The translations under genes and the position numbers were made by a program. The notes under the pieces were generated by a model. That model was given only the letters and a program-made list of their open reading frames with translations. It did no database searches and was not told where the DNA came from. A stretch of 64,000 nt of DNA from a virus: positions 23,536 through 87,535 of the IMG/VR virus record IMGVR_UViG_3300045988_125731. One strand, 5' to 3'. This document shows, piece by piece, positions 5,057 to 29,888 of this stretch. Every line of letters begins with the position of its first letter. The stretch's first letter is position 1.

Positions 5057-5716
5057 ATGGCTAATAATTTAAGTTTAGGTATGGTCATAGCCCTAATTAA
5101 AAAATTAGGTGGAGGCGGTGGAGATATTGATAAGGCTATCGCTGATTATATTGCTGCTCATACCAATATTGCTGATGGAATTGCTGGGTTAGACGCTGCT
5201 GGGCAAGTGGCTCCTGCACAATTACCAGACCGAAACCATCAATTAGTTTTACCTTATGTTGTAGAATTAACTAGCGAAGAAATGGCAAACGCAATAGATG
5301 ACAAAACTGAAGATTATGGCACTATTGCTATTGGTCAAGTCGCAACCCCTACTACTAATGATGTATTTGTAGTAGGGCATTTATATCAATATGTATCTGA
5401 AGAAGGCGTATATAATTGGAATGATTTAAGTGATAGTTTTCAAGCAAAGAACTTATCATTTACTAATACATCAGTTGCCGCTTCTTTATTTGCTGATGAT
5501 ACAACTTATGCTGATTTAGGTTTTAGTTTTAAAGCCACAATTCCTCTTACAGGAGTTACGCAAGCAATGTATCCTATTGCTTCTTTTAGTTTAGTTGACG
5601 CTATGAGTGGAAATTATGCTCCAACAGTAGAGTCTTATAATGGCGGTATATACATTTGGGCAAAAACTAAGCCAGACACAGCCTTAGTTATACCTAGAAT
5701 AGAGGTGATTAGATAA
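5057..5716 (+). CDS. hypothetical structural-module protein
   Basis: AATAGGAGGT RBS. Gly-rich N-terminus. Confidence 0.45.
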   Translation: MANNLSLGMVIALIKKLGGGGGDIDKAIADYIAAHTNIADGIAGLDAAGQVAPAQLPDRNHQLVLPYVVELTSEEMANAIDDKTEDYGTIAIGQVATPTTNDVFVVGHLYQYVSEEGVYNWNDLSDSFQAKNLSFTNTSVAASLFADDTTYADLGFSFKATIPLTGVTQAMYPIASFSLVDAMSGNYAPTVESYNGGIYIWAKTKPDTALVIPRIEVIR

Positions 5717-6471
5717 TGGCAGTCGGAATTACTAATTGTTTAGTAGGAAGTAGTGAAAATACATTAAAGAATTTATTAGATGCTACACAAAGTTGTTATT
5801 ATTTATTTCGTAACTATAAAGGAACTTCTATTGATGATTTGATTACTTATAATGACACAAGTAATGTTACTAATATGTCTAATATGTTTAATAAGTGTTC
5901 TAGTTTAACTACAATACCACAATTAGACACTAGTAAAGTTACTGATATGTCTTCTATGTTTTATGATTGTAACTCATTAACTTCTATACCTTTATTAGAC
6001 ACTAGTAAAGTTACTAATATGTCTTATATGTTTGGATATTGTAGTAAGTTATCAAGTATCCCTTTATTAAATACTAGTAATGTTACTAATATATCTTCTA
6101 TGTTTTATGCTTGTAAGTCATTAACTTCTATACCTTTATTAGACACTAGTAAAGTTACTTTTATATCTGGTATATTTAGTGGTTGTAGTCAGTTAACTAC
6201 CGTTCCTGCATTAGATGTTAGTCATAGCAATAATCTGAATAGTATATTTAGTGGTTGTACTTCTCTTAAATCTATTTTAATGACGGGAATGAAAGTATCG
6301 TTTGACATTTCTGCTTCTACCCAATTTGAAACAGATGACATAGTAACTATTTTAAATAATCTTGCTACTATTACAACTCCACAAACACTAACAATGGGTG
6401 CTACAAATCTTGCTAAGTTATCAGACGAACAAAAGAAAATAGCAACCGATAAAGGCTGGACTCTAGCCTAA
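5716..6471 (+). CDS. DUF285 / 26-residue-repeat (BspA-like LRR) surface-repeat protein
   Basis: Six tandem 24-aa repeats of type DTSKVTNMSYMFxxCSSLTSIPLL. GAGGTGA RBS. ATG overlaps the upstream stop. Confidence 0.6.
   Translation: MAVGITNCLVGSSENTLKNLLDATQSCYYLFRNYKGTSIDDLITYNDTSNVTNMSNMFNKCSSLTTIPQLDTSKVTDMSSMFYDCNSLTSIPLLDTSKVTNMSYMFGYCSKLSSIPLLNTSNVTNISSMFYACKSLTSIPLLDTSKVTFISGIFSGCSQLTTVPALDVSHSNNLNSIFSGCTSLKSILMTGMKVSFDISASTQFETDDIVTILNNLATITTPQTLTMGATNLAKLSDEQKKIATDKGWTLA
5854..6285 (+). repeat. coding tandem repeat, 72-bp period x6 (inside the DUF285-like gene)
   Basis: e.g. ttaacttctatacctttattagacactagtaaagttact... recurs with 72-nt spacing. Confidence 0.6.
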
Positions 6472-8482: not shown

Positions 8483-9166
8483 ATGAAAAAATTAAAATCA
8501 GAGAGTTTTGCTCAAGATATTAAATTTGAAGATATTATTAGTCTTGAAGAACTTAATGAAGATTTATTTACCGAATTTAAATACAAAGGAAAAACTATTA
8601 TAGTAAAAACATTTTTAATGCCAGAAGAAGTTAACGAGTTAGTTAACTATTGTATTTCTAATTTCTTTGAAGATTTCGACCCAGAGAATTTAGAAGTTAA
8701 TAAACTTCCAGCAATAAAATCTATTTTTGATTTATTAGTTTTGCGATATTCAGCTAATGTAGAAATTGATTTTGATGACCCTGAAGCTAAATATCTTCGC
8801 CTTTTATCTTCACGCTTTTTACAAGATATTTTAAAACTTGTAGAAAATAGAGAAGAAATCTGGCATTTAATAGAAGAAACTATTAATCATCAAATTACTA
8901 TACATAGTTTAAATCTTGTAGCTTCACACATTCCAACATCAGCCGAACTAGATTCTAGTATGGAGCAAATGGGAGCAACTCTTGAAGCATTAAAGAAAAG
9001 TAATCCAGAACTAATAGAACTTTTAATTAATAAGACAGTTGCAGAAACTACCAAACAAGCAGCAAGAGAAGAACGTAAAACTCAAAAGCCAAAACCTTCT
9101 GTTGAAGAAACTACACGCTTAGAGAAAATACGTAAAGATGTAGATTCTGCTGTTGAAGGTAGATAA
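8483..9166 (+). CDS. acidic protein, possible tail assembly chaperone
   Basis: Acidic 227-aa protein in the usual chaperone position upstream of the tape measure protein (TMP). Confidence 0.3.
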   Translation: MKKLKSESFAQDIKFEDIISLEELNEDLFTEFKYKGKTIIVKTFLMPEEVNELVNYCISNFFEDFDPENLEVNKLPAIKSIFDLLVLRYSANVEIDFDDPEAKYLRLLSSRFLQDILKLVENREEIWHLIEETINHQITIHSLNLVASHIPTSAELDSSMEQMGATLEALKKSNPELIELLINKTVAETTKQAAREERKTQKPKPSVEETTRLEKIRKDVDSAVEGR

Positions 9167-9203
9167 AAGGTAGATAAATAGAAATAAACTTTTATAAATC
9201 TAT

Positions 9204-9241
9204 AGGACTAAGAAAAACAATACTCTTAGTCCTATTTTTTA
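9204..9241 (+). terminator. rho-independent terminator (AGGACTAAGA...TCTTAGTCCT + T-run)
   Basis: 10-bp perfect stem followed by ATTTTTT. Confidence 0.6.
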
Positions 9242-9336
9242 CTAACCTATTTTATTCTTTAAACTGCTTTTTATTTTGCAATTTAAGGCTTAAAAATAGG
9301 CTATTTTTGAAGTTTTGAAGAAAGGATTTATAATTT

Positions 9337-9942
9337 ATGGTGGTGTTTAAAAACCATTCAGAATTTGACCGAATTTTCGGCTCGATGTTTTTATATACTG
9401 TGATGTCTAGCGTTTTGGATTCTGTTATAAAAGAGTTTAAAAAGAACTTCAAAAGTAGAAATATTAATGTAGATGTTTTTAAACAGTATATAAAAAGAGA
9501 AATTATAGTTCATAACAATAAAAAAGTTGAAGGTTTTATTTATATAGATACAACTCTTTTACAACTACAAGAAGAAGCAGACGCAAGTCCTGCAACTGGT
9601 GGTTGGTCAAGATTTAAGTTTACGTATGACGCTAGTGAAAATTATGGAGATTTTCCTACGGCTGGTGATAATACAATTAATGGAAAGTATGTATCTTGGC
9701 ATATGATTAAATGGCTAGAACACGGAATGACTATCGACCCAAATTCGCATTATCGTGGTAATATGGCGAAAAGAATCCGTGGCAAATTAATACCTAAACC
9801 TTGGAAAAAAGTAGGAATGTTTGAGAAAACCTATGAATGGGCAAAGGCAAATTATGCTACACTATTAAACAAAGCATTCAAAAAAGTTGGTTGTATTCCA
9901 GTTGGTCAACCTGGTGGACAACCAAGATTACATAATAAATAA
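9337..9942 (+). CDS. hypothetical protein upstream of the TMP genes
   Basis: GAAAGGATTTATAATTT ATG. 201 aa. Confidence 0.45.
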   Translation: MVVFKNHSEFDRIFGSMFLYTVMSSVLDSVIKEFKKNFKSRNINVDVFKQYIKREIIVHNNKKVEGFIYIDTTLLQLQEEADASPATGGWSRFKFTYDASENYGDFPTAGDNTINGKYVSWHMIKWLEHGMTIDPNSHYRGNMAKRIRGKLIPKPWKKVGMFEKTYEWAKANYATLLNKAFKKVGCIPVGQPGGQPRLHNK

Positions 9943-9977
9943 ATTAATTATTGAAGAAAGGAGGTATATGAGGAAAT

Positions 9978-12900
9978 ATGGCTAATAAAATAACTGGCAC
10001 TAATTATTATATATCCAGTGGAATACAGATTACTACAACTGCTCAAGATATTCAAGAACAACTTAATAAACTTAGTGCAGATAAAGTTTTGGCAACTGGA
10101 ATTCGACTTAAGTTTAGTACTACTGGGTTACGAAGTGGTTTTAATACAGCAATTAGGAATGTATTAAAAAATTCTAATTTAGGTTATATGGCAGGACTTG
10201 CTCCAGGTAGTGGCAGTGGTGGAAGTGGTATTGCTAGTAAAGTAGCAACTCCTATAAGTCCTATTGATGGACTTAATAAAGATGATGTTTCTAAGATGGG
10301 AATTCTTGAACAATTTTCTACTACTAGTAGATTTTCTTTAAAGAAACCACCTTCAGTTACTGAAATGTATAAATATCAGCAAAATTTAAATACCACTATT
10401 AGAGCCACTTTTAAAGAGGGACAGGGGTTAATTTCTTTAACTAAAACTCTTACTACTAGAGCAAGTGATACTACTAGAAGATATGAAGAGTTAAAGATTA
10501 GACTAAATAATTTACGTAAAATTGGCAAACTTTCTAAAGTTCAGTTTAGACGTTTTACTGATGAATTAGAGGCTACCAATCAACTTACAGGCAAAGATAA
10601 ACTAGAAGCATTAAGAAAAATTCAAACAGAACTTGCCGATATTAGCAAACGCAGTCAGTCTTGGCTTGGTATATTTAAGCAGAATCTACAAAAGTTTACA
10701 TCTTGGATAACTATTACTGTTGGTTTCTTTGGTATTATTAATTCTATTAAGAAACTAGTAAAAGAAGTGAAAGCCGTTGATGATGCAATGGTCGAACTTA
10801 ATAAAGTTGCCGACCTTTCACAAACGCAAATCGCTAAAGTTCAAAAAGACGCAAATGCTTTGGCTTCTAGGGTATCCACAACTGCTGACGAAGCGTTAAG
10901 AGCGGTAGCACAATTTAAAAAGGCTGGTTATAGTTTAGACCAATCGTTTATCTTAGCAGAAACTGCTTTACGTACTGTTAATGTAGCAGATGGAATAGAA
11001 AATGCAGAAGATGCCGCAACTTCTCTTATTGCAATCTTAAGAGGTTTCAATATGGAGGCTACTGAAGTTGGTCGAGTTCTAGACGTATTAAATCATATAT
11101 CTAATAATTTCGCCGTCGATGTTAATAATTTAACTGACGGTATGCAAAGAATATCAGCCGTTATGGCACAGACTGGAACTTCTTACGAAGAAACTATTGG
11201 TCTTTTAACTGGTGGCTTTGAAATTTTAAGAAATTCTGAAGTAGTCAGTCAAGGTCTAAATACAATTTCACAAAGAATGCGTAGAGTAACTGAAGATGGA
11301 CAAGACAATAGTCAAGTAATATCTAAGATAGAAGAAGGTTTGTATAAATATACTAGGGGAGCAGTTTCAGTTTACGACAAGCAAACTGGAGAGCTTCGTT
11401 CTACTTATGATGTATTAGCTGACCTTGCTACTGTGTGGGATACTTTATCATCTTTATCACAATCTTATATTACTGAATTGTTAGCTGGTAATAGACAAAA
11501 TAAAGTTTTAGCAGCTATTATGAGCAACTGGGCAAATGTTCAAAAAGTTGTTGCAGAAAGTGCTTATGCTTATGGCTCAGCTAAGGAAGAAGAACAAAAA
11601 GTTTTACAAAGTGTTCAAGGTAAGTTAAATGCGTTAAAACAAGCTATTCAAGAATTTGCTCTAAGAAGTTTAACTTCAGACACAGAAAAAGGAATACTAG
11701 ATATATTAACTAGTATTGTTAAATTTGGGACTGATTTAGGGGGCTTATTCAAGATTTTAGGGCGTTTGGGCATAATTATACTAGCTTGGAAACTACCTCA
11801 AATTATACTCCTTATTAGCTCTTTAAGAACAAATGTTATTAGACTAACTACTGAGATTAACGGTCTTACTTATCAATACCAAGTAATGACGGTTATGGGC
11901 AAAGAATATGTTATTGCCGAACGTAGTTATGGAGAGGTTACTAATGCAGCAACCAATACAGTTAATGGGTTAACCGCTTCCTTAAAACATATATCTATAG
12001 TTATAACAGCTTTAATTGCAGTTTATACAGCTATTCAATTTATAGATTCTCGTATTACAGAGTCTATGAAAAAAGAAGCAGAAGAAGCTGAAAAATTCTA
12101 TGATAAGAATAAATCTCAATACGATACTCTAATGAGTAATTATGATGAATATATTAAACTTATCACAAAAACTGACGCTACTGCTTCTGAAGTAAATAAA
12201 TTAAATGTATTAGAAAAGCAATTTGCTCTTTATGGAATAGATAATGAAATAGCTCAATTAGGAACTAGAACCGATAAGATTGAAGCAATTGCTGACATTA
12301 TAAGACAACAAGCTTTAGCAAGACAAAAAGTAGTAGAAGATACTGCTAATGCTATGGCTGTTAACAAACTTCCAAGTTATTGGTATAATGCTACACAAAG
12401 TTCTGCGGGTAAAGGTAGAATACACGCATTTCAGGAAGCTTCTTTTGAAGAAAAAATAAAAATGCTTAGGAGTATGGCTTCTAATGAGAATATTAGTGCA
12501 TCGCATAGGGACGAATGGCAAGCCGCTTTAGAATATTACGAACAACTTTACAATGAATGGAAACAATTAGGCTTAGCCGCTGACCTTGAAGGTAATCCTA
12601 AGATTATAGAATTACGTACTAAAATAGGAGAGTTTTTAAATGCTGCTGATTTTTCTTTAGATAAAACAAAAGAAACCCAACTTACTATGTATAAATCTAT
12701 TGACGCCTTAGTTGCTGATATAGAAAAAGAACTTAGTGATGGTTCTTTAAGTGGAGAGGCTCAGCTTTATATAGAGTCTTTACTAAAGGCTTACCAAGAG
12801 CAACTTGATATTGTTTTAAATAAAGACTATGCTTTTGAATACTTAGGAGATAAATTGCAAGAACTTAAAGATATTCAAAGCAATAGAGAAAAAGAATTAG

Positions 12901-13538
12901 AGCGACAAGAAAAATTAAAAGCTATTGAAGAAGCTAGACAAAAACTAGCTGAAGCCGAAAGAACTCATATGCTAGTACGCACTAAAGAAGGTTGGCGTTA
13001 TATAGTTGAAAAGAGTACCTTAGAAGAAGCTCAGGCAGAATTAGATAGTGCTTTAAAAAATGCAGGGCTAGATGATTTATCTCAGGCTATTGCTGGAATA
13101 GAGGCATTACGTAGTATCTATTCTCTTGCTAGTGGTTCTGTATTAGATAATATGAGAACGTATTTTAGAGAGGCAGGAAATTTATCTAATTGGCTCGCTT
13201 CTGATTGGGAAAGTAAATTAAAAACTTTAGATAGTTTTGGCGACCCAGAATTATCAAAGAAATATTATGATTCACAAAAAAATTCTACAGCAACAGGAAT
13301 AGACCTAAGTAAATTCTTTGGTTTAGGTAGAACTGGTGGCTATGTAGGAGATAGTCCTAATAAGAATTTAACTTCTATAGATACAAATAAATCACAAGCA
13401 ATTCTTTCTGCTATAAGAGAGAAAGCAAAAAATATTATTTTAAATATTGATGAATTAGATTTGCCAGGCGTAACTAATGCTTCACAATTAGTTGCTGCTT
13501 TGACAAGTTATGCTTATCAAAAAGCGTCTAATAAATAG
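9978..13538 (+). CDS. tail tape measure protein, copy 1 (TP901-family core domain)
   Basis: 1186 aa. GAAAGGAGGT RBS. TP901-type TMP core (AVAQFKKAGY, DLLNH.SNNFAVD, ISAVMAQ.GTS.EET, AGNRQNK). Internal hydrophobic segments and coiled-coil regions. Confidence 0.85.
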   Translation: MANKITGTNYYISSGIQITTTAQDIQEQLNKLSADKVLATGIRLKFSTTGLRSGFNTAIRNVLKNSNLGYMAGLAPGSGSGGSGIASKVATPISPIDGLNKDDVSKMGILEQFSTTSRFSLKKPPSVTEMYKYQQNLNTTIRATFKEGQGLISLTKTLTTRASDTTRRYEELKIRLNNLRKIGKLSKVQFRRFTDELEATNQLTGKDKLEALRKIQTELADISKRSQSWLGIFKQNLQKFTSWITITVGFFGIINSIKKLVKEVKAVDDAMVELNKVADLSQTQIAKVQKDANALASRVSTTADEALRAVAQFKKAGYSLDQSFILAETALRTVNVADGIENAEDAATSLIAILRGFNMEATEVGRVLDVLNHISNNFAVDVNNLTDGMQRISAVMAQTGTSYEETIGLLTGGFEILRNSEVVSQGLNTISQRMRRVTEDGQDNSQVISKIEEGLYKYTRGAVSVYDKQTGELRSTYDVLADLATVWDTLSSLSQSYITELLAGNRQNKVLAAIMSNWANVQKVVAESAYAYGSAKEEEQKVLQSVQGKLNALKQAIQEFALRSLTSDTEKGILDILTSIVKFGTDLGGLFKILGRLGIIILAWKLPQIILLISSLRTNVIRLTTEINGLTYQYQVMTVMGKEYVIAERSYGEVTNAATNTVNGLTASLKHISIVITALIAVYTAIQFIDSRITESMKKEAEEAEKFYDKNKSQYDTLMSNYDEYIKLITKTDATASEVNKLNVLEKQFALYGIDNEIAQLGTRTDKIEAIADIIRQQALARQKVVEDTANAMAVNKLPSYWYNATQSSAGKGRIHAFQEASFEEKIKMLRSMASNENISASHRDEWQAALEYYEQLYNEWKQLGLAADLEGNPKIIELRTKIGEFLNAADFSLDKTKETQLTMYKSIDALVADIEKELSDGSLSGEAQLYIESLLKAYQEQLDIVLNKDYAFEYLGDKLQELKDIQSNREKELERQEKLKAIEEARQKLAEAERTHMLVRTKEGWRYIVEKSTLEEAQAELDSALKNAGLDDLSQAIAGIEALRSIYSLASGSVLDNMRTYFREAGNLSNWLASDWESKLKTLDSFGDPELSKKYYDSQKNSTATGIDLSKFFGLGRTGGYVGDSPNKNLTSIDTNKSQAILSAIREKAKNIILNIDELDLPGVTNASQLVAALTSYAYQKASNK

Positions 13539-13552
13539 GAAAGGAGGTAGTT

Positions 13553-16500
13553 ATGGCACAATATAATTATTATGTTGGCGTTGGCGTTAAGATAGTAACA
13601 AGTCCTAAAGAGTTACGAGATTTGTTATCGAAATATAATGTAGCGGTTAATAATGTAAAAGTAAATTTTGATGTTGATTATATGGCTGCACAATTCAAAG
13701 CAGCGATAAAGAAAGCCCTAGGTAGTATTAGTGTAACTAATCTTGGAATAGATAATTCTACTAAGCCATTTAATATAAAAGATATTGAACCTAGTGCAAA
13801 ACTAGAAAGTTCAGTAAAAGCATATAATGAACTTGGTAAAGTTATTAAAGTAGTTAATACTTATGCTATTGGAACAAACAAAACATTAAAAGTTGTAACT
13901 GACGGCACGGGTAAATTAATATCTACTCAACAAACTTTAAAAACGCATAATACAGAAGCCAATATTGCGTTAAAAAATGTGCAAGAAAGATTTACATATT
14001 TTAAACAAAATGGTAAATTAACAGCACAACAAATTAACTACTTCACTCAAGAATTAAATAGAATCAGCAAATTAACAGGAAAAGAAAAGGTTGAAGCGAT
14101 TAAGGTATTCAATCGACAACTTTCTGACACAGGCAAAAGAGCGTTAAGTATTGGCGAACAGTTTAAAGAAGCGTTCAAGAAATTTATGGTCTGGTCTGCT
14201 GCTACAGTAACATTTGCAAGTTTAGTAAAAGCTATTAGGAGTATGATTCAAGAAATTAAAAAGCTTGATGATGCTATAGTTGAATTAAACAAAGTTGCTG
14301 ACTTAACTAACAAAGAATTAAGTGGCGTTATAGATAAAGCTAATGAACTAGCTGATAAAGTTTATAGCACCGCAGACCAAGCTTTGCTCGCCGTTGCTCA
14401 ATTTAAAAAAGCAGGTTATGAATTAAATCAATCTTTTGACTTAGCTGAAGTTGCTATAAGAATGACAAATGTTGCTGATGGTATTACAAATACTGAAGAA
14501 GCCGCTTCTTCTCTTATAGCAATATTAAAAGGCTTTGGACTAGAAGCGTCATCTGCTAATAGAGTTCTAGACCTTTTGAACCACACTTCAAATAACTTTG
14601 CGGTAGATACTGACGACTTAACCAACGGTATGACTAGAATTTCTGCTGTTATGGCTCAATCAGGCACTTCAATTGAAGAGACTATAGCGTTATTAACAGC
14701 GGTAACCGAAGTTATGCGTAATGCCGAAGTTGCGAGCCAAGGCTTGAATGCTATTTCACAAAGAATTAGAAAAGTTACAGAAGACGGCGAAGATAACACC
14801 AAGGTTATTGCTAAGATTCAGTCTGTATTTGATAAGTATGTTAAAGGTGTATCTGTATATGATGTTAATGGAGAATTACGTTCTACATATGACATTTTAG
14901 CAGACTTACAACCACGTTGGGCTGGATTAAGTTCAGAAGTAAAAGCATATGTTACAGAAGCAATTGCTGGTAATAGACAAAATAAAATTTTAGTTGCTTT
15001 AATGCAAAACTGGGAAACTGTTGATAAAGTAATAACAGAAAGTGCAAACGCTGCTGGTTCCGCAATTGAAGAAGAAGGTAAATTTGCTGACAGTGTACAA
15101 GGTAAATTAAATCAACTAAAGCAAGCGTGGAACGAACTTGCTCAAGCAACTTTAGATTCTAATCTTTTAAAATTCTTTATTGACGCAGGTAAGAGTGTTG
15201 TAAAATTAGCTACTTATCTTGGTGGACTACACAACGTTTTGTTTGCTATCTCGGGTTTAGTTGCAGGAATAAAACTTCCAGTAATAGTTAATTATGTTAT
15301 GGCTTTAACTAAAGGCTTTAGAGCTAATCACGTAGCTTCTGTAAGTAAAACAATTTCTACTAAAGCTGAAACGCAAGCCGTTAATGAAAACACTCAAGCA
15401 ATGCAATTGAATAATGCTGCTATGAATACAAATATTGCTTCTACCAATAAGCTTAGCAAAGCATTAAAAATAGCTTCTCTTGCAATCACAGGCATTACAA
15501 TAGTATGGAGTGCTGTTACAACTATTATTAATAAAATCAAGGCTGATATGGAAGAAGCGATTACCCTTGCTTCTGAAAATGCCACAAAACAAAAAGAGCG
15601 TTTTGATGAATTTTTGAAAGAGCGTGATGTATATCTTGAATACTCACAAACTATTAATAAAACCGCTAAAGAAATTACTGCATTAAATGCAGCCGAAAAG
15701 AACTTAGCAGAAACTTATGGCTTTGTATCTTCTCAAATGGACTTAGCAAATGATAGTCTAGATGCAAGAAAAGAAAAGTTAAAGGCTTTATTTAATGTTC
15801 AAAGAACAGAAGTTCAAAAGACTATTGACGCTTATCAAAAGCAGATTAATACTTTAGGCAAAAATACATCTGCTATTAGAAAAAGCGAACTATGGACTGG
15901 TACTCGAGCTATGTCTTTAGAAGAATATTTAAGTAAGCGAGAACGCACACTACTAAAGAATGTTCGTGCTAAGGGTGAACCTAAGTTTACTGTTGAAGAA
16001 ATTAGACAATTTAGAGAAGGTTGGACTAATACTTATAATCAGTTATTAAAAGAACTTCAAGGTAATGAAGCATATCAAGAAATTACTTCATTACAAAATC
16101 AAATTACAGCACTTCAAAAAGTTTACCAAGATGAGGAAGTATTTAATCTTAGTAATTTAATAGCACAATTTCAAGCACTTCCTACTTTTGCCTTAGAGCA
16201 AGGTACAGATATAGGAGATTTAGCAGATACACAAGTTAATTCTATTGCTACAATAGACGCTGTAATTGCCAAAGTTAAAGAACTTTTAAATTTGGAAAAC
16301 CAAACTCCTGAAGTTATACAGATGTTTAATAGTATTATTGAAAGATATACTACATTAAAAGAAACTATTGAGAAAACTGATTTTGCTTATAACACACTAG
16401 ATGAAAAGTTAAGTATTTTAAAGAAGATTCAAAGCGAACGAGAAGAAGAACTAAAGACAGAAGAAAAACTAAAAGCCGTAGAAGAAGCCAGACTTGCTTT

Positions 16501-17146
16501 AGCTAAGGCTCAAAATAAATATGTCTTAACTTATACTTCACAAGGTTGGCGATATGTAAAAGATGAATCTGCTATGCAATCAGCAACTGAACAACTTACC
16601 AAGGCTATTCAAGACGCTGGGTTAGATGATTTATCTCAAGCAATAAACGGCGTAGAGCAACTTCAAGAAATTTTGTCTACTATGACAGGAGATGAAAAGG
16701 ACGCTATGCTTGCTTATTATAGAGAAGCAGGTAAATTAGCCGATTGGCTTGAAATGGACTATGCTAGTAAACTTGCTGTTATAGATTCTATTGCAAGAAG
16801 TGCTGGATATGAAGGCTCTTATACTCAAGACTATTTTAACGAATGGGGAAAAACTGGAACTAGATTTGGCAATCTAACTCCTTATATTCCAAGTTCGCAT
16901 ACTGGTGGTGTAATTGGCGGAGTTCGCACCAATCCAAACGAACAAATTACTAAACTTCTTAAAGGAGAACTTGTATTAACTGAAGGACAACAAAAAGCCC
17001 TTGTAAATCAAATGGATAAACAAGGTGGTGGACTATCTATTAATATAGGTAATATTTCTACTAAGGAGCAAGATGTTGATGTTACTAATTTTATAGAACA
17101 AATTAAACAAATTGGTAGTATGCAACGAAGAACAAAGAGAATATAA
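13553..17146 (+). CDS. tail tape measure protein, copy 2 (paralog of copy 1)
   Basis: 1197 aa with its own AAAGGAGGTAG RBS. Same TP901 core motifs and same C-terminal block (GWRY...AGLDDLSQAI.G.E.L) as copy 1. Confidence 0.85.
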   Translation: MAQYNYYVGVGVKIVTSPKELRDLLSKYNVAVNNVKVNFDVDYMAAQFKAAIKKALGSISVTNLGIDNSTKPFNIKDIEPSAKLESSVKAYNELGKVIKVVNTYAIGTNKTLKVVTDGTGKLISTQQTLKTHNTEANIALKNVQERFTYFKQNGKLTAQQINYFTQELNRISKLTGKEKVEAIKVFNRQLSDTGKRALSIGEQFKEAFKKFMVWSAATVTFASLVKAIRSMIQEIKKLDDAIVELNKVADLTNKELSGVIDKANELADKVYSTADQALLAVAQFKKAGYELNQSFDLAEVAIRMTNVADGITNTEEAASSLIAILKGFGLEASSANRVLDLLNHTSNNFAVDTDDLTNGMTRISAVMAQSGTSIEETIALLTAVTEVMRNAEVASQGLNAISQRIRKVTEDGEDNTKVIAKIQSVFDKYVKGVSVYDVNGELRSTYDILADLQPRWAGLSSEVKAYVTEAIAGNRQNKILVALMQNWETVDKVITESANAAGSAIEEEGKFADSVQGKLNQLKQAWNELAQATLDSNLLKFFIDAGKSVVKLATYLGGLHNVLFAISGLVAGIKLPVIVNYVMALTKGFRANHVASVSKTISTKAETQAVNENTQAMQLNNAAMNTNIASTNKLSKALKIASLAITGITIVWSAVTTIINKIKADMEEAITLASENATKQKERFDEFLKERDVYLEYSQTINKTAKEITALNAAEKNLAETYGFVSSQMDLANDSLDARKEKLKALFNVQRTEVQKTIDAYQKQINTLGKNTSAIRKSELWTGTRAMSLEEYLSKRERTLLKNVRAKGEPKFTVEEIRQFREGWTNTYNQLLKELQGNEAYQEITSLQNQITALQKVYQDEEVFNLSNLIAQFQALPTFALEQGTDIGDLADTQVNSIATIDAVIAKVKELLNLENQTPEVIQMFNSIIERYTTLKETIEKTDFAYNTLDEKLSILKKIQSEREEELKTEEKLKAVEEARLALAKAQNKYVLTYTSQGWRYVKDESAMQSATEQLTKAIQDAGLDDLSQAINGVEQLQEILSTMTGDEKDAMLAYYREAGKLADWLEMDYASKLAVIDSIARSAGYEGSYTQDYFNEWGKTGTRFGNLTPYIPSSHTGGVIGGVRTNPNEQITKLLKGELVLTEGQQKALVNQMDKQGGGLSINIGNISTKEQDVDVTNFIEQIKQIGSMQRRTKRI

Positions 17147-17168: not shown

Positions 17169-17933
17169 ATGTCTTTAAATGCTCAAACAGGTAAAGAGAT
17201 TAGAGTTGCATTAGAGCAAGCATTAGATAATGTGCTTAGTGAAGCATATAAAACTTTGCCTTATGACAAAATCTATTATGGAATATTAATAGGCGTTGAT
17301 AGTCTGGGTATAAATTATACTCTTTCTATCAATGATAAAATTTATACTGATGTAAAGCGAATACAAAACTGTGGAGTTCTATCTATTGGAACTCCCGTTA
17401 TTTGTATGGCTCCACAAAATCAAATGACAAAACTTTTTATTCTTGGGGCTGTACAAACTACTACACAAACGGCTGGACAAATTACTCCTATTTTAATTAG
17501 TATTACAGATAGTGATATTAATAATGTAAATGGAGTATCAGTTCCTAGCGTTAGTGATTTAATTAATGAAAGTTTATTATTTACCAATCATATTAAATTA
17601 CAACTTCAATCAGGAGAGTATTTAAACCTTCCTTTTACAAGGAAAACCTCTAATAATGTATATTATAGTGCGGTTGTAGATGGACAACTTTGGACTTTAT
17701 ATACAAAGGGTGCTGAAAATAAAGTTTATATTACAAAATCTTCAATGGGTATTGACACGTACGACGCAACAGCTTCTGAGGCTGATATTGCATTAGATAA
17801 AACTGCTTATGCCCAAGGAGAAAAGATAACTGGTAATATTAATACTTATGATGGAAGTTATATTTTGGAAAAAAGAATAAATAATAAATTACGAAAGTTT
17901 ACGAAAATTAAACGTAAAACTAGGAAAATTTAG
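17169..17933 (+). CDS. tail protein (distal tail protein candidate by position)
   Basis: First gene after the TMPs. No motif recognised. Confidence 0.35.
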   Translation: MSLNAQTGKEIRVALEQALDNVLSEAYKTLPYDKIYYGILIGVDSLGINYTLSINDKIYTDVKRIQNCGVLSIGTPVICMAPQNQMTKLFILGAVQTTTQTAGQITPILISITDSDINNVNGVSVPSVSDLINESLLFTNHIKLQLQSGEYLNLPFTRKTSNNVYYSAVVDGQLWTLYTKGAENKVYITKSSMGIDTYDATASEADIALDKTAYAQGEKITGNINTYDGSYILEKRINNKLRKFTKIKRKTRKI

Positions 17934-17951
17934 AAAGGATTATATAATAAT

Positions 17952-18920
17952 ATGGCAACTTGTATAGTTAAAAGCTATGATGGCAATAAAATAATTGGTC
18001 AATTTGATAATGCTACAGGTATAGTTATTTCAAATAATGCTAATGGTGGTATTACTCAAGGCTCTACCTTAGTTTGTTCTTTACCATTCTTGCTAGGTTT
18101 ATCCACCTCTGCCAATGGAGCATTAAAGTATACGCCTAAAACAACCGCTCAAACGGTTACCGAAACTACTTTATATGCTTCAAGAGACCCTATTAAAATT
18201 AGTTTAGGAACTGGAACATATAGTTTAAGTACGCAAGACACTATTGTAAGAAATAATATTCAAGTTACAGTGGCTTCGGATGTTAAAAACCAATCAAAGA
18301 CTGTAACTCCTACAACTTCTCAACAAACTATTACTCCAGATAGTGGATATAGTGGTTTGAACCCTGTAATTGTTAACGCTATTCCTGCAAAATATAAAGA
18401 CACTTCTGACGCTACAATTGTAGATGGTTCTCAATTATTAACTGGATATACTGCGTATGGTCACAATGGCAAAGTTATTGGTTCTATGCCTAAAGCAACC
18501 TCTGGAGTATTAGTTAATAATGCCGCTGGTGTAATTATTCCTAAAGGATATTACGATGGCACTTTAAAAGCTACTGTTAATTTACAATCTAAAACAATAT
18601 CTCCAAAAGCAACTTCTCAAACTGTAACTCCAGACAGTGGACAATTCTTATCAAGCGTTACAGTTGACCCAATTCCTATTTCAAATTTAACTTATAGCAG
18701 TCAAGCTTCTTTAAACAAAGCCTTAGTTTTAGACTTTAGTAAGCAAGCGGCTGTTCACGACAATTATCAATCATTCTTCACAGCCGATGGATATTATGCT
18801 GACTCTATTGATGTTATGAGACCAGATACTCTTATCCCAGACAATATTCCAGCCGATGTTACAATTGCTGGTATTGCTGGTGGAATCCCAATTTACACAG
18901 GAGCGTATACTAAGAACTAA
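17952..18920 (+). CDS. tail fibre-like protein with internal repeats
   Basis: Internal repeat TVTPTTSQQTITPDSG / TISPKATSQTVTPDSG. C-terminal IPDNIPADVTIAGIAGG motif shared with the next gene. Confidence 0.4.
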   Translation: MATCIVKSYDGNKIIGQFDNATGIVISNNANGGITQGSTLVCSLPFLLGLSTSANGALKYTPKTTAQTVTETTLYASRDPIKISLGTGTYSLSTQDTIVRNNIQVTVASDVKNQSKTVTPTTSQQTITPDSGYSGLNPVIVNAIPAKYKDTSDATIVDGSQLLTGYTAYGHNGKVIGSMPKATSGVLVNNAAGVIIPKGYYDGTLKATVNLQSKTISPKATSQTVTPDSGQFLSSVTVDPIPISNLTYSSQASLNKALVLDFSKQAAVHDNYQSFFTADGYYADSIDVMRPDTLIPDNIPADVTIAGIAGGIPIYTGAYTKN

Positions 18921-19705
18921 TGGCAAAGAGTAAAGTAATAACTGTCAGTGAATTTTCAAATAGTACAGCGGCAAATAGTGCAAAGAGAATATCAGATATA
19001 AATAATATACAAATTTCCATCACTGAAAATGGTAGTTATACTTTACAAACTAAAGGCACAATCTGTCGTAAAGATGTTGATTTAATAGTTAATGTAGCTT
19101 CTGCTGGAATTACAGGAGTTAATCAAATTAATAATACACTCTTTATTGATAGTAGTTGTACCGCTACAAAAGCAACAAACCATTTAAATGGTAATGCAAG
19201 TGATGTGTATATTAATAGGTTGGATTATTGTGATGCTCTTTCTCATAAAACTTTCAATGATAAAGGGCTTGTCTATAACTTTATAGACGATTACGGGGGT
19301 GGAGCAGATGGAAGCAACGGAATAATTAAATTTTGTAACGGGTCTGAGGCTGATAACAACCTATATCAAGAAGGCTGTGGGGCGAGTCTACAGTTTACAG
19401 CAGGCGATAACTCTATACCTACTGTTGATATTTATGATAGAGATGGAAATCTTGTTGCATATATGCACGATGGCTTACTCGAGAATGTGAAGGAAATAAC
19501 CATCGATGATTTACATCTAGCCAGTGGTAATCAAATAATACAAGGGTTGGAATTTCAATATCAATCACAGGCAACTGGGACTAGTGGAGAGTGTCTTACC
19601 TATTATAGTAAAATTACAATAATTAAACCTAGCACGCTAATTCCAAGTAATATTAGAAAAGGTGTTACTATTGCAGGTGTAACTGGAACATATGAAGGAA
19701 ATTAA
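18920..19705 (+). CDS. tail fibre-like protein (shares C-terminal motif with 17952..18920)
   Basis: TAATG coupling. C-terminus STLIPSNIRKGVTIAGVTGTYEGN. Confidence 0.4.
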   Translation: MAKSKVITVSEFSNSTAANSAKRISDINNIQISITENGSYTLQTKGTICRKDVDLIVNVASAGITGVNQINNTLFIDSSCTATKATNHLNGNASDVYINRLDYCDALSHKTFNDKGLVYNFIDDYGGGADGSNGIIKFCNGSEADNNLYQEGCGASLQFTAGDNSIPTVDIYDRDGNLVAYMHDGLLENVKEITIDDLHLASGNQIIQGLEFQYQSQATGTSGECLTYYSKITIIKPSTLIPSNIRKGVTIAGVTGTYEGN

Positions 19706-22392: not shown

Positions 22393-24459
22393 ATGGATAT
22401 TTCTACTACAAGATATAACATTTTTAACCAACCTTTAAGAAATAAACACGTTAAAATAGAAGTGTATGATTTTTCTAATACTTTAATTGATGTGTTGCAA
22501 ACAAAAGTTATTAGTGGAAGTTTAACCTTTGACGCTGATAACGATTTACGTCGTTCTGGGTCTTTAGAACTAGCCATTCCTGCTAAATTTAACAGCCCAG
22601 TATTTACACAAAATGTTCACGCCTTTTCTTCAGTGCTTAGTGGAGAAGGGCATATTTGGTATGACCGATATTTAAAAATATTTATTGGTATAGAAAATAT
22701 AACTCTTTCTCCATTAGTAAAGGAAGAAGATAAGATAGAGTGGTTTAATATGGGTTGTTACTTGGTAGATAAACCTAGTGAACAAATATCAGCAACTGAA
22801 GATTCATTATCTTTTAATTTACTTGACAGAATGGCAGAATTATCTGACCAAAGACAAGGTCAATTGCCTAACTTATCAGTTGAGATTAGAGGCGATGAAT
22901 ATATTAATGGCGAGTGGGTAAGAAAAGAAACACGCACTGTAATAGTCGATGTGCTTACTAATCTATGTGGAATCACTAAATATGCTATAGCAGATATTCC
23001 TTCATATTACCAATATTTACCTTATAGCATAAAAGTGTCTGCAGGAGCAACAAAATTACAATTATTACAAGAAATTAGAGACACCCTTCCTAACTGGGAG
23101 TTCTTTTTTGATGAAAACGGCGTGTTTATTTTCCAAGAAATACCTAACGGCTTAACTTCACCAACGCTAAGAATTCCAGAAAACCAAGTTATTAGTAATA
23201 CATCAGACGTTGAATTTACAAATGTAAAGAATGAGATTATCATTTATGGAAAAACTCACGAAACAACTTTCTTTGCAAAGTCGGCTCGATATGCTAATGA
23301 TACAGAATTACAATTAGACTTTGATAGTTTAGGTGGTTCTTCTGGATTTACACAAAATACTTTTACTGCTGGTTCTACAATTGGTTTTACTACTCCAGAC
23401 AATGGACTAAGTAATCCAACAATCAATTATGTTTCATTTTGGTATGACAATTTTACTAAAAAGATTTTTGGCACTGAAACTTGGAGTGGAGATTTTTATC
23501 TATTTCCTTATGAGAATGCTGACGGAAATCCTTATCCAGACTTTCCTGCTCAAGCATATAACTTTGATGGAAATCAATTAGCTCCTAATACTTCTTACGT
23601 ATTATCTATGTATTATGGATTATACGATGAGAATAAAGTGTTTATATCAAATGATGGACTATATGAGATTAATAGACCAGCTTTACAATTATTATCTCAC
23701 TTGCAAGTTAAAGCGGTGAGCGTAAATAATACTGTCCGCAGTCCTTTCTATATTAATAGAAGACTTACTGGGGAAAATTATTATGGCGGTTTAAGTAATT
23801 TAAATAACTTAACTCTTGCCACTTACTCTGTATCTATTAATGATATTGATGTTAATGGAATACCTTTAACCCAATTTAATTTGGGAACAAGAATAACCTT
23901 TATGCCTCAATATCCTAACACTGAGAATAATACCAGCATATATGTAACGAACCAAGATGGCTCTTTATATGAACAAGCACATTTAATTACAACAAGTAAA
24001 ACTGTGTATCAGGCTTTACCGCAAAATTCTTTTGTGGGCGATTATACTATCTTTGTAGTACAATTAGTAGAAATTGCGGGAACTCGTTATTGGTATCTCG
24101 AAGGAAGGCTAAATTCGGCTATTCCTTACATTTTAACAGATGGTGAGTATGGTAACCTATCTTCAGATTATATCGCTCAAATTAGGGCGGATTATGAGCT
24201 TTATTTGCACTCTTATTTGCCTAATACGATTAATCTAAATGTTATACCTAATTATTTATATAATGTTAACCAAAAAATAGAATTTGGTCAAACATATAAG
24301 GACTTTACAACAAAGTCTGAACAATTGGTTCAAACATCAGATAATAAAATATTCCAAGTTAAAGATAAGAATACTAATTATTTGATTAAAAAAATTTCTT
24401 TTAACTTAGATTCTGACGCAAGCACAATGGATATTACAGCGATGGAAATTTTACAATAG
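22393..24459 (+). CDS. tail-associated (Tal-like) protein, 688 aa
   Basis: AAGGGAGGT RBS. N-terminal region resembles the structural domain of siphophage Tal / prophage tail proteins. Last large gene of the tail module. Confidence 0.4.
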   Translation: MDISTTRYNIFNQPLRNKHVKIEVYDFSNTLIDVLQTKVISGSLTFDADNDLRRSGSLELAIPAKFNSPVFTQNVHAFSSVLSGEGHIWYDRYLKIFIGIENITLSPLVKEEDKIEWFNMGCYLVDKPSEQISATEDSLSFNLLDRMAELSDQRQGQLPNLSVEIRGDEYINGEWVRKETRTVIVDVLTNLCGITKYAIADIPSYYQYLPYSIKVSAGATKLQLLQEIRDTLPNWEFFFDENGVFIFQEIPNGLTSPTLRIPENQVISNTSDVEFTNVKNEIIIYGKTHETTFFAKSARYANDTELQLDFDSLGGSSGFTQNTFTAGSTIGFTTPDNGLSNPTINYVSFWYDNFTKKIFGTETWSGDFYLFPYENADGNPYPDFPAQAYNFDGNQLAPNTSYVLSMYYGLYDENKVFISNDGLYEINRPALQLLSHLQVKAVSVNNTVRSPFYINRRLTGENYYGGLSNLNNLTLATYSVSINDIDVNGIPLTQFNLGTRITFMPQYPNTENNTSIYVTNQDGSLYEQAHLITTSKTVYQALPQNSFVGDYTIFVVQLVEIAGTRYWYLEGRLNSAIPYILTDGEYGNLSSDYIAQIRADYELYLHSYLPNTINLNVIPNYLYNVNQKIEFGQTYKDFTTKSEQLVQTSDNKIFQVKDKNTNYLIKKISFNLDSDASTMDITAMEILQ

Positions 24460-27533: not shown

Positions 27534-29888
27534 TTATTCCTCATATAAAGAATAAGTATATTCATCATCATTAGAAGAACTATTCTTTAAGTCTGCGTTA
27601 AGGTCATAATATCCACTTAACATTTCAGATAATAGTGTTTGTTTAGTAGAAACTTTTGTTGTAGCAATAGCAGTTTCTAATGCTCTTTTTTCAGCACAAA
27701 GAATACATTTCTTTTTTGCTCTTGTAATGGCAGTGTATACCCATTGTCTACATAGTAAAGTATAAGCAGAATAATTTACACCTACTATAACAGTATCGGT
27801 TTCACTACCTTGGAACTTATGACAAGTAATTGCATAAGCAAGTTGAAGACTACCTAACATTTTATCTTCATAAATAACTTCTCCAACTTTATCATAGTTC
27901 ATAGAAAAATCTACAACTAAGGTACGCTCTAAACGATTGATTTCTTTGATAATACCAATATATCCATTGTAAACATCAACTTTATCACCATTAGTATTTA
28001 AGCAGTTATAAGAATTAACAATATTAATTACTTTGTCTCCAACTCTAAAACACTTATCATTCTTTAATGGTAAAGTATTTAAACTCGAACATTTACTTTC
28101 TGGATTGTAGTAGTTTTGTATCATAGTATTTAAAGAGCTTACACTGATAGAACCCCTATCACGCATCGGCACAATAATTTGAAGTTTATTTATGTCTTGT
28201 AATCTTTCATAGTTTTCTTTAAATGCTTCAAAAATTGCTTGTTCTGTATGTGCATTATTAATTCTAAGTTCAAAATCTTCTAATTCTCCCCTAATATAAG
28301 AACCACCATCTACGCAGCCATTAGTAATACTTTCTCCATTACGTACGTGGAAAGACTCAGTAATAATACCACTCTTTAAGGCTTGTCTATGAATTTTATT
28401 TAAAACTTGACAAGGAATAACTCTGCATTCCAATAAGTCTTTTAAGATGTTCAAACAACCGATGCTTTCTAATTGGTTATGGTCGCCAACCATAATAAGT
28501 TTTGCTCCAGTCGGAATGGCTTGAATTAAAGCATAAAACAATTCTCCACCAATCATAGACACTTCATCAAGAATAACAATATCAACATCTAAAGGATTTT
28601 GCTTGTTGTGTAAAAATCCACCTGTTTCAACATCTATTCCTAATAATCTGTGAATAGTAGAACCTTCTAGCCCTGTAATTTCAGTTAATCTAGAAGCGGC
28701 TCTTCCTGCTAAAGCAACTTGGGCTATTCTATAACCTTTAAATGCTCTAACTAATACTTCTACAGTAGAACTTTTACCAGTACCAGAAGCACCAGTAATT
28801 ACACCTACATTAGATTCACTAAAGATTTTTGCTCCATTGATTTGTTCATCAGTTAATTTCCAACCACGTTCTTCTTCAATTTGTCTTACGATGCTATCTA
28901 TTGTATAACCTGGGAAAATACGTCTATTGTTTCCATCTAACAAGCGTAATAATTCATTAGCAATTTTACGTTCTAGATTATAATATTTAAGTAAAAATAC
29001 TCTATTGCGTTCTTCATCAAATCTTAAAATATCATTATCAGTTAATTGCGTAATAGCGTCGCCAAATGATTGCATTATAGTATCTTTATGGGAGTTGATA
29101 TATTCTGAATCAAATAGTTTAAGAACGCCTGCTGTTATAACATCTGGAGTAAGCCACGAGTTACCGACTTGAGCCTGCTCTTCTAAGTAATAACAGATAA
29201 ATCCTGCAATTCTTTGTGGACTGTCAAAAGCAATGCCAACTTTCATTCCAATTTCATCTGCTTTAGCCCAACCAATACCTTTAATATCTCTAATTAGTTG
29301 ATAAGGATTTTCTTCTAATATCTTAGATATTTTATCAAGGTTGCGATAACGTTTTAAAAGTTTATCGATAATAGATACACTTAGATTGTATTGACCTAAT
29401 TTAGAATATGCCATTTCATATTGCTTATTTTCTTCGTATTTTTGAATTATTCTTTGAGCAGTAACAGTTTTTATACCTTTTACTTCACATAAAGCGTCTA
29501 TATCTTTTTCTTTAATAACTTTTAATGGGTCGCTCAAGGTATTATATAATGCTTCAACTTGTCTTTCTGATAGGATATAAGATAAAAATTGTCGTGTAGA
29601 ATAATCATTTTCACTAGCAAGAGAAGGTTGCATATATATAATCTGATATTGTAATCCATAAGTAGGGTGTTCCACAATATTTGCCATTAACGAAAAGTAC
29701 GTTTTGGCGTCAGTATGCATATCTATTTTAGGCAATTCACCAACAACTGATATAGAATTACCACTCTTAACATCTACACACGCTAAAGTTCCCCACGTAC
29801 CCTCTGAAACTCTTTGTCCAGATGGGTATTTTATTCTTGAAACCTGTACGGTAATTTGTACAGACTTTTTAATATTAGATTTTTCCAT
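27534..29888 (-). CDS. RecD-like SF1 DNA helicase (ATP-dependent exoDNase alpha-subunit family)
   Basis: Walker A GASGTGKS, Walker B ILDEVSM, motif III VGDHNQLESIG. 784 aa. Confidence 0.8.
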   Translation of the reverse strand: MEKSNIKKSVQITVQVSRIKYPSGQRVSEGTWGTLACVDVKSGNSISVVGELPKIDMHTDAKTYFSLMANIVEHPTYGLQYQIIYMQPSLASENDYSTRQFLSYILSERQVEALYNTLSDPLKVIKEKDIDALCEVKGIKTVTAQRIIQKYEENKQYEMAYSKLGQYNLSVSIIDKLLKRYRNLDKISKILEENPYQLIRDIKGIGWAKADEIGMKVGIAFDSPQRIAGFICYYLEEQAQVGNSWLTPDVITAGVLKLFDSEYINSHKDTIMQSFGDAITQLTDNDILRFDEERNRVFLLKYYNLERKIANELLRLLDGNNRRIFPGYTIDSIVRQIEEERGWKLTDEQINGAKIFSESNVGVITGASGTGKSSTVEVLVRAFKGYRIAQVALAGRAASRLTEITGLEGSTIHRLLGIDVETGGFLHNKQNPLDVDIVILDEVSMIGGELFYALIQAIPTGAKLIMVGDHNQLESIGCLNILKDLLECRVIPCQVLNKIHRQALKSGIITESFHVRNGESITNGCVDGGSYIRGELEDFELRINNAHTEQAIFEAFKENYERLQDINKLQIIVPMRDRGSISVSSLNTMIQNYYNPESKCSSLNTLPLKNDKCFRVGDKVINIVNSYNCLNTNGDKVDVYNGYIGIIKEINRLERTLVVDFSMNYDKVGEVIYEDKMLGSLQLAYAITCHKFQGSETDTVIVGVNYSAYTLLCRQWVYTAITRAKKKCILCAEKRALETAIATTKVSTKQTLLSEMLSGYYDLNADLKNSSSNDDEYTYSLYEE

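Follow-up and report, generated by a model that had tools for sequence, protein, structure and literature searches.

Two full-length paralogous tape measure protein genes in tandem, conserved in a clade of uncultured phages: a possible hetero-oligomeric tail ruler

The stretch of DNA studied here, hereafter the window, covers 64,000 nucleotides of the IMG/VR virus record IMGVR_UViG_3300045988_125731 (positions 23,536 to 87,535). Two adjacent genes in it encode complete tape measure proteins (TMPs), which we call TMP-A and TMP-B (Table 1). The original prediction for this DNA had described two full-length open reading frames (ORFs) of 1186 and 1197 amino acids (aa) as separately initiated, diverged paralogs of the TP901 type in tandem. 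Both ORFs lie at exactly the coordinates it gave, on the plus strand, and the description is strengthened by the conservation of the pair across lineages, by the purifying selection acting on it and by its rarity. Aligned end to end with BLASTP, the two proteins are 36% identical over 1185 columns (608 bits, E = 0), a paralogy far beyond chance. The TP901-type core attributed to both was confirmed by profile searches: PF10145 (PhageMin_Tail) scores 89.6 bits in TMP-A and 112.5 bits in TMP-B, for a curated cut-off of 33.2, and TIGR01760 (tape_meas_TP901) scores 103.5 and 136.6 bits, for a cut-off of 28.8. Both proteins also match many "tail length tape measure" PHROGs. Ten of the eleven motifs quoted for the pair are present in both proteins as written; the remaining one, NVADGI.N.E.A.SLIAIL.GF, was one residue short, and its corrected form NVADGI.N.E.AA.SLIAIL.GF matches TMP-A and TMP-B. 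Each gene has the ribosome-binding site (RBS) of its own that had been proposed, with GAAAGGAGGT at 9956 and AAAGGAGGTAG at 13540. The pair lies in a tail module, as judged from synteny with single-TMP relatives, with chaperone-like genes upstream and distal-tail and hub genes downstream. Searched against the PDB by sequence and by profile, A, B, the family profile and a neighboring 403-aa protein gave no matches or only generic coiled-coil noise, a Foldseek search of the TMP-A model against the PDB gave no significant match, and PADLOC returned only a negligible coiled-coil match (LmuB, E = 3e-4). By every testable feature of their sequences, TMP-A and TMP-B are members of the TP901-type TMP family, and it is their conserved pairing that is unusual.

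The source is an uncultured phage of about 88 kb, from a small group of uncultured phages of about 85-95 kb. Clusters of the exact proteins at 90% identity have 14 and 34 members, carried by contigs of 83-95 kb from NCBI, JGI, ENA and Logan, and one member (DAT71068.1) is a human-virome metagenome-assembled genome record. The A-B tandem recurs at 98-99% identity in one IMG/VR contig and in two Logan assemblies. No near-identical DNA was found among cultured phages, where the closest homologs belong to the Enterocloster phages PMBT24 and CB473P1, of about 100 kb, and to the Thomasclavelia phage TR-TP1. The phages of this clade probably live in the gut, and their hosts are probably Clostridia.

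One TMP gene per genome is typical of this family, without strictly defining it, and the window departs from this rule by its two complete copies. Exactly one matching place was found in each of the 307 phage-collection records that contain a homolog, and the 12 prophage relatives (in genomes of Lachnospiraceae, other Clostridia and Gastranaerophilales) all have one TMP. A family-profile search covering 79 IMG/VR loci found one intact TMP in 56 and one interrupted TMP in 19; two complete cores occur in only three, the source phage and two contigs of lineage B, all from one clade. Closest to A and B among the single-copy proteins are three of 957-1102 aa, whose genes belong to SPbeta-like tail modules. 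In the open-access literature, searched with a limited set of phrasings ("two tape measure," heterotrimeric TMP), we found no phage described with two paralogous TMP genes of full length, the matches being chaperone pairs, cross-species comparisons and unrelated topics, and the arrangement may still be described elsewhere. Could the pair be a single TMP gene split by an insert? Complementary halves of the core in successive ORFs would indicate such an interruption, and split genes do show, for example, positions 2-164 of the core profile followed by 166-309. In contrast, A and B each cover positions 1-309 (L013-L015). We therefore rejected this identity for the pair, since both ORFs have the complete core.

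The same A-then-B order was found in the diverged contigs L005, L006, L007, L014 and L015, always as a gene of 1185-1193 aa followed by one of 1180-1188 aa, and the pair is carried by three independent lineages only. The upstream copies are 47-67% identical to TMP-A and the downstream copies 50-69% identical to TMP-B, whereas all comparisons between A and B give 35-40%. A neighbor-joining tree of 552 well-aligned columns, which included twelve single-copy outgroups, recovered three clades in 100 of 100 bootstraps each: all A sequences, all B sequences, and A+B together against the single-copy relatives. The A and B subtrees share the same topology, and the single-copy protein P0013 is the sister of A+B. 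These clades and their mirrored subtrees indicate that a single tandem duplication took place in situ in the clade's ancestor, and that the two copies have since been inherited together. Gene conversion between A and B was rejected, because paralogs are equally identical within and between genomes in every region. Among closely related pairs, whole-gene dN/dS (omega), estimated with the simple counting method of Nei and Gojobori, is 0.076 and 0.087 for A, and 0.092 and 0.141 for B. Omega is well below 1 in every region of both proteins, including the two C-terminal tails. Neither copy is decaying, and both are kept by purifying selection.

The anatomy of the two proteins is very similar. From end to end, every one of the twelve A and B sequences of the three lineages measures 1180-1197 aa (1185-1193 aa for TMP-A and its orthologs, 1180-1197 aa for TMP-B and its orthologs), in contrast to 860-2084 aa among the single-copy relatives. 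Since alignments are uncertain in the variable regions, we compared segments by their anchor-to-anchor lengths, several of which are equal across the twelve sequences: 89 residues before the core, 273-275 for the core, 40 after it, and 28 and 51 for the two pieces of the C-terminal block. Identity between paralogs is about 65% in the core, 47-49% in the C-terminal block (67-89% within each paralog) and 7-28% in the variable regions. A pair of hydrophobic, transmembrane (TM)-like helices lies just after the core in A, in B and in the single-copy relatives, and in TMP-A these helices have Kyte-Doolittle means of 1.9-2.0 over 19-residue windows. The AlphaFold2 model, made for TMP-A, is predominantly helical, with a mean predicted local distance difference test score (pLDDT) of 61 (75-89 in the core) and a beta-hairpin at residues 997-1010 (GWRY). 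These traits, the long helical fold for A and the membrane-type segments for both, are those expected of a TMP. A and B also have a common N-terminal start (NYY[IV]..G[IV]) and an identical spacing of the C-terminal block, which suggests that they would occupy the same topological position in the tail. In the lineage of the window, the N-terminal variable segment and then the middle segment differ by +14 and then -6 to -11 residues in A, and by -16 and then +28 to +41 in B. This hints that the length of each chain is itself constrained, indels of opposite sign being offset within the same protein. Alternative tail lengths, one of the outcomes that the original prediction had envisaged, are disfavored because A and B have the same length in every lineage. 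Of the two other roles it suggested, a heteromeric ruler is the one that we favor, and recruitment of a duplicate to a different role stays in play as a rival.

Table 1. Features of the TMP locus, with positions in the window
Feature	Position	Strand	Description
227-aa single-copy gene	8483..9166	+	Putative tail assembly chaperone by position (synteny only)
Terminator-like hairpin	9202..9240	+	12-bp perfect stem, 10-nt loop, U-run; before the TMP operon
Promoter-like site	9307-9334	+	TTGAAG-16-TATAAT; 3' of the hairpin, between the two chaperone-like genes
201-aa single-copy gene	9337..9942	+	Second putative chaperone or TMP-associated protein; immediately upstream of TMP-A
RBS of TMP-A	9956..9965	+	GAAAGGAGGT; equivalent GGAGG upstream of A in all lineages
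TMP-A	9978..13538	+	1186 aa; upstream paralog, derived termini; PF10145 and TIGR01760 above cut-off
TMP-A core domain	10731..11663	+	Residues 252-562, TIGR01760/PF10145; aligns without indels to the B core at about 65% identity; pLDDT mostly 75-89
TMP-A two hydrophobic TM-like helices	11766..12044	+	Residues 597-615 and 671-689
TMP-A conserved C-terminal block	12825..13331	+	Residues 950-1118: DYAF, EKLKA, GWRY beta-hairpin, AGLDDLSQAI
TMP-A derived C-terminal tail	13332..13535	+	Residues 1119-1186; without the strand and "F[IV]..[IL]...GN" motifs; "L.LP.V" kept
RBS of TMP-B	13539..13548	+	GAAAGGAGGT, with AAAGGAGGTAG at 13540; abuts the TMP-A stop codon; 14-nt spacer
TMP-B	13553..17146	+	1197 aa; downstream paralog, ancestral-like termini; PF10145 and TIGR01760 above cut-off
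TMP-B core domain	14216..15265	+	Residues 222-571; PF10145/TIGR01760
TMP-B two hydrophobic TM-like helices	15233..15526	+	Residues 561-579 and 640-658
TMP-B conserved C-terminal block	16379..16900	+	Residues 943-1116
TMP-B ancestral-type C-terminal tail	16901..17143	+	Residues 1117-1197; LLKGELVLT and DVTNFIEQIKQIG motifs
254-aa conserved gene	17169..17933	+	Candidate distal-tail partner; immediately downstream of the TMPs; role from position

The paralogs differ mainly at their ends. The C-terminal tail of B always has 81 residues, with an identity of 64-70% among B sequences and of 12-23% to A. We compared these tails with those of the single-copy outgroups P0013, P0014, P0017 and P0023. A strand motif, [KT]G[ETS].[IV], is common to B and all the outgroups (LLKGE[LV]VLT in B, LPKG[TS]EIL or LPTGSRVY in the outgroups), as is a terminal motif, "F[IV]..[IL]...GN." TMP-A has an 8-residue gap in the place of the first and "QL...L..YA" in the place of the second. 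Conversely, "L.LP.V" is kept by A and by P0014, P0017 and P0023, and is lost in B and P0013. The ancestral features of the C terminus are thus retained in a complementary way by the two sequences, B keeping the strand and terminal motifs and A keeping "L.LP.V." P0013 aligns with B to the very C terminus (E = 9e-36) and through the N-terminal region of B (E = 2e-16), whereas its alignment with A extends no further than the shared block. A foreign origin of the A tail was rejected: used as a query, residues 1090-1186 of A match only sequences of this clade among 1.84 billion representatives. Omega in the A tail is 0.04 at short range and 0.29 at long range, and it is 0.05-0.18 in the B tail. Over long distances the A tail has accumulated nonsynonymous changes about 1.8 times faster than the B tail (dN of 0.339 versus 0.192), and relaxed selection on the A tail is only partly supported.

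The junction between the genes is tight. In all lineages GAAAGGAG directly follows the stop codon of A, and the ATG of B lies 14-20 nt downstream. No convincing terminator or promoter was found between A and B, and from this junction we predict that the two genes are co-transcribed and co-expressed. An A-B fusion made by readthrough or frameshifting was rejected, because the stop codon, the frame relation and the spacer vary among lineages and in-frame stops intervene, which leaves no conserved route to a fusion.

How could a tail use two rulers of the same size? Chains of a single TMP can have two fates in one tail. In Ur-lambda, six gpH* chains lie in the tube and only three gpHC C termini are bound to trimeric gpI (PMC12617516), and for the cyanophage A-1(L) and the archaeal virus HFTV1 the same source cites six TMP copies, three of them engaged with the tip. 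Given this precedent of six versus three, and a common ruler body with divergent ends, we prefer a reading in which both ORFs are functional TMPs that would be co-assembled in parallel, in one tail lumen, as a hetero-oligomeric ruler; we give it a probability of about 0.5. Chains of A and B, being of equal length, would be built side by side into the lumen of each virion and would together set a single tail length of roughly 180-190 nm. At infection both would be ejected, and their paired hydrophobic helices could contribute to a channel across the envelope. The most specific form of this ruler would be an A3B3 hexamer. B, with its ancestral C-terminal motifs, would supply the three C termini that dock into a trimeric hub at the tail tip, and A, which has lost these motifs and has a constrained tail of its own, would supply the three undocked chains. 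Through the duplication, the two roles that identical chains play in lambda, A-1(L) and HFTV1 would have passed to separate genes. That such a hexamer is obligate, with the mismatch between the 6-fold lumen and the 3-fold tip hard-wired into two genes by complementary loss of motifs, B docking and A having gained a new clade-specific C-terminal function, is a more tentative proposal that we consider possible rather than probable.

A simple estimate of tail length separates the parallel arrangement from a serial one. The siphovirus PMBT24 has a TMP of 1508 aa and a tail of 238 nm (PMC11035940). With 0.15-0.158 nm per residue (the usual 0.15 or the PMBT24 calibration), parallel chains predict a tail of about 178-189 nm, and chains placed end to end predict about 357-376 nm.

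Several observations weigh against the hetero-oligomeric ruler or limit it. Three TMP copies, and not six, are reported for some siphophages, such as T5 (PMC12617516), and for this reason a hexamer should not be assumed. From the core to the C terminus, A and B are of unequal length, with a difference of +42 residues in the window and of -15 in L006. There is thus no strict register between the chains, which disfavors a tight heteromeric coiled coil throughout. The argument from length compensation concerns two proteins and one lineage contrast, and it is statistically weak. The relaxed constraint predicted for the A tail was only partly observed, and purifying selection on this tail argues that it is not simply a free, disordered end. 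Finally, no sheath was found and no tail tube gene was recognized directly; the phage is a predicted siphophage, from the lack of a detected sheath and from its siphovirus relatives.

Two of the other explanations survive about equally well, and we regard both as unlikely. The first is that A and B are alternative rulers, giving tails with A only, with B only or with random mixtures of the two, of the same length but with different ejected channel proteins, as a form of bet-hedging in the face of variable hosts or of exclusion systems directed at the TMP while DNA enters the cell. The equal lengths, common core, TM-like helices and C-terminal block mean that either protein could in principle rule alone, and the termini are paralog-specific and conserved. 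Ltp of Streptococcus phage TP-J34 is reportedly a superinfection-exclusion protein that targets the TMP, and TMPs determine the dependence on host factors in HK97 and lambda. However, A lacks the C-terminal motifs kept by every single-copy relative and for this reason might be unable to dock in the hub by itself. The placement of the RBS of B directly at the stop codon of A suggests coordinated and not alternative expression, and no regulatory switch was found between the genes. The second is that B is the sole ruler and A has acquired a new function, as an assembly scaffold lost from the particle or as an ejected pilot or channel protein carried elsewhere. This would fit the derived N- and C-terminal regions of A, its loss of ancestral motifs and the faster long-range change of its C-terminal tail. 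Yet the length of A is at least as invariant as that of B (1185-1193 versus 1180-1197 aa), which is hard to explain unless this length matters, and its full core, TM hairpin and C-terminal block are under strong constraint (omega of 0.04-0.13).

Slightly more doubtful is that A and B act as serial rulers, placed end to end with B at the tip and A proximal to the head, so that 2383 residues would span a tail of about 360-375 nm lengthened by gene duplication instead of internal repeats. The summed length of A and B is also conserved (2370-2383 aa), only B has the ancestral, tip-type C terminus, A being derived as expected for a chain off the hub, and the order of the genes matches the order from head-proximal to distal. 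Among the relatives there are also long single TMPs, which reach 2084 aa. Against this, two chains at different positions would not need the same N-terminal start motif and identically spaced C-terminal block, indels are offset by others in the same protein and not across the pair, and the TM hairpins are at the same relative place in both. To our knowledge no end-to-end stacking of TMPs has been described, and long tails elsewhere have one long TMP, for instance that of P23-45, given as 5002 aa. The last alternative, a mis-assembly or a decaying duplicate with one copy becoming a pseudogene, is refuted as far as sequence data can do so: as the original prediction held, this is no assembly repeat, since A and B are only about 66% identical in DNA over the core with no long identical stretch, which makes a collapsed or expanded repeat not credible, the same tandem occurs in independent IMG/VR, Logan, ENA and NCBI assemblies, omega is about 0.1, and both frames are intact in all lineages, including that of the second ORF, for which decay in relatives had been the outcome to look for.

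The genes around the pair fit a tail module. Homologs of the 227-aa gene lie just upstream of the TMP genes in the paired lineages L006 and L007 and in the single-TMP relatives L010 (6904-7488) and L011; its product has no Pfam or PHROG match, and for this reason its putative function is proposed from synteny only. The 201-aa gene has orthologs (52-56% identical) directly before the paired TMP genes of L005, L006 and L007, and a weak homolog before the single TMP gene of L012. Both chaperone-like genes are unduplicated, and both also precede the TMP in single-copy relatives. A chaperone pair made by -1 programmed frameshifting (G/GT type) was rejected, because 8483-9166 and 9337-9942 show no overlap and are 170 nt apart, with the hairpin and the promoter-like site in the gap. 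The hairpin has a predicted folding energy of -15.2 kcal/mol (z = -5.3), and none of 200 shuffled sequences folds as well. Together, the predicted hairpin and the promoter-like site may serve to attenuate transcription, or to start it again, ahead of the low-copy tail genes. Downstream of the pair, the N-terminal part of the 254-aa gene (about 95 aa) is conserved directly after the TMP genes in L005-L007 (52-53%) and in the single-TMP relatives L010, L011 and L012. Two further downstream proteins, of 597 and 688 aa (DUF5048), are homologous to the region of the baseplate hub genes of the PMBT24 group.

Other features of the window and of its relatives concern modules beyond the TMP genes. Two extra genes (17952-18920 and 18920-19705, plus strand) separate the TMP-adjacent gene from the distal tail genes and are absent from the sister lineage. 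They have a common C-terminal motif, TLIP.NI...VTIAG[VI].G (52% over 29 aa), and are probably exchangeable modules of host recognition. A gene for a DUF285/leucine-rich repeat (LRR) protein (5716-6471, plus strand) lies within the head-tail structural module, and its homolog in L006 (19061-19591, 48% identical) comes after the tail genes; given this different location, it looks like a movable cassette. Near 25.7 kb there is a strand switch with a change of GC skew, and positions 25700-64000 form a minus-strand module encoding a RecD2-like helicase (27534-29888), the alpha subunit of DNA polymerase III (30810-33983), a phosphoadenosine phosphosulfate (PAPS)-reductase-like protein (46025-46936), a PD-(D/E)XK nuclease, a DnaB-like helicase and an ERF recombinase. 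No tRNA genes were found in the window. In L007, a TnpB-like ORF (22510-23558, OrfB_IS605/Cas12f1-like_TNB) lies beside a 145-aa UvrD_C_2 fragment, and the site to which it compares in L006 (23133-23543) has an intact RecD2-like helicase of 782 aa; this looks like an insertion of the IS605 family in a phage replication gene. The truncated first gene of L007 (1-726, 559-aa product) has a weak match to a Hint domain, and this structural gene may contain an intein.

Interrupted TMP genes deserve a description of their own. The 19 interrupted relatives among the 79 IMG/VR loci are L056-L058, L062, L063, L065, L067, L068, L072-L077, L080-L082, L087 and L090, and the TMP of TR-TP1 (L002) is interrupted too. 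The inserts measure 0.4-3 kb and fall at recurrent positions of the core profile (about 56, 125, 135, 164 and 177). An ORF in the insert of L063 (8918-9997) has a treble-clef zinc-finger domain (DUF4379), and the inserts of TR-TP1 are annotated as HNH endonucleases. Rfam searches of four interrupted loci found one group I intron (L058, 4123-4402), which lies outside the TMP core. The core of these genes looks like a hotspot for mobile inserts.

The pair may have implications for the study of tails in general. How many TMP chains a tail contains (three or six) and what becomes of their C termini is currently debated (PMC12617516). In phages with a single gene the chains are indistinguishable, whereas two distinguishable chains of equal length would allow stoichiometry, docking and channel formation to be read directly. 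The pair would thus be a natural test of the number of ruler chains in a tail and of the role of each, and its interest lies in the fact that it could make the question of copy number and docking directly testable. It also suggests that tail rulers can evolve by whole-gene duplication and subfunctionalization, and not only by internal repeats. For annotation, two adjacent "tape measure" calls call for caution, as they can be a rare true pair or one interrupted gene, the latter being common in this TMP family.

Comparison with known systems places the pair among familiar proteins in an unfamiliar arrangement. TMPs of the TP901-1 type (TIGR01760/PF10145; e.g., in Lactococcus phage TP901-1) have the same core, position in the tail module and hydrophobic helices after the core. 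The nearest cultured homologs, the TMPs of PMBT24 and CB473P1 (1508-1509 aa), are encoded by a single gene, whereas the window has two paralogs side by side. Several adjacent ORFs annotated as tape measure also occur in genomes of the TR-TP1 and CB457P1 type (PMC11035940), in TR-TP1 as two pieces split by HNH endonuclease ORFs. However, such ORFs are complementary halves of one core, and here each has the entire core, both termini and the full length. The SPbeta-like tail modules (YomU tube, YomN, YomX and the TMP YomI) provide another point of comparison: their Pfam families are present in the modules of the nearest single-copy relatives, and no YomU-type tube was detected in the window. The TMPs of SPbeta and phi3T are distant homologs of A and B, and SPbeta has one long TMP. 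Lambda gpH has no detectable sequence relation to A and B, and yet the closest functional parallel may lie there. The chains of one lumen in Ur-lambda, A-1(L) and HFTV1 belong to two classes by their C termini, and A and B differ mainly at their termini, one of ancestral type and the other derived. In those viruses both classes come from one gene, whereas here they would come from two.

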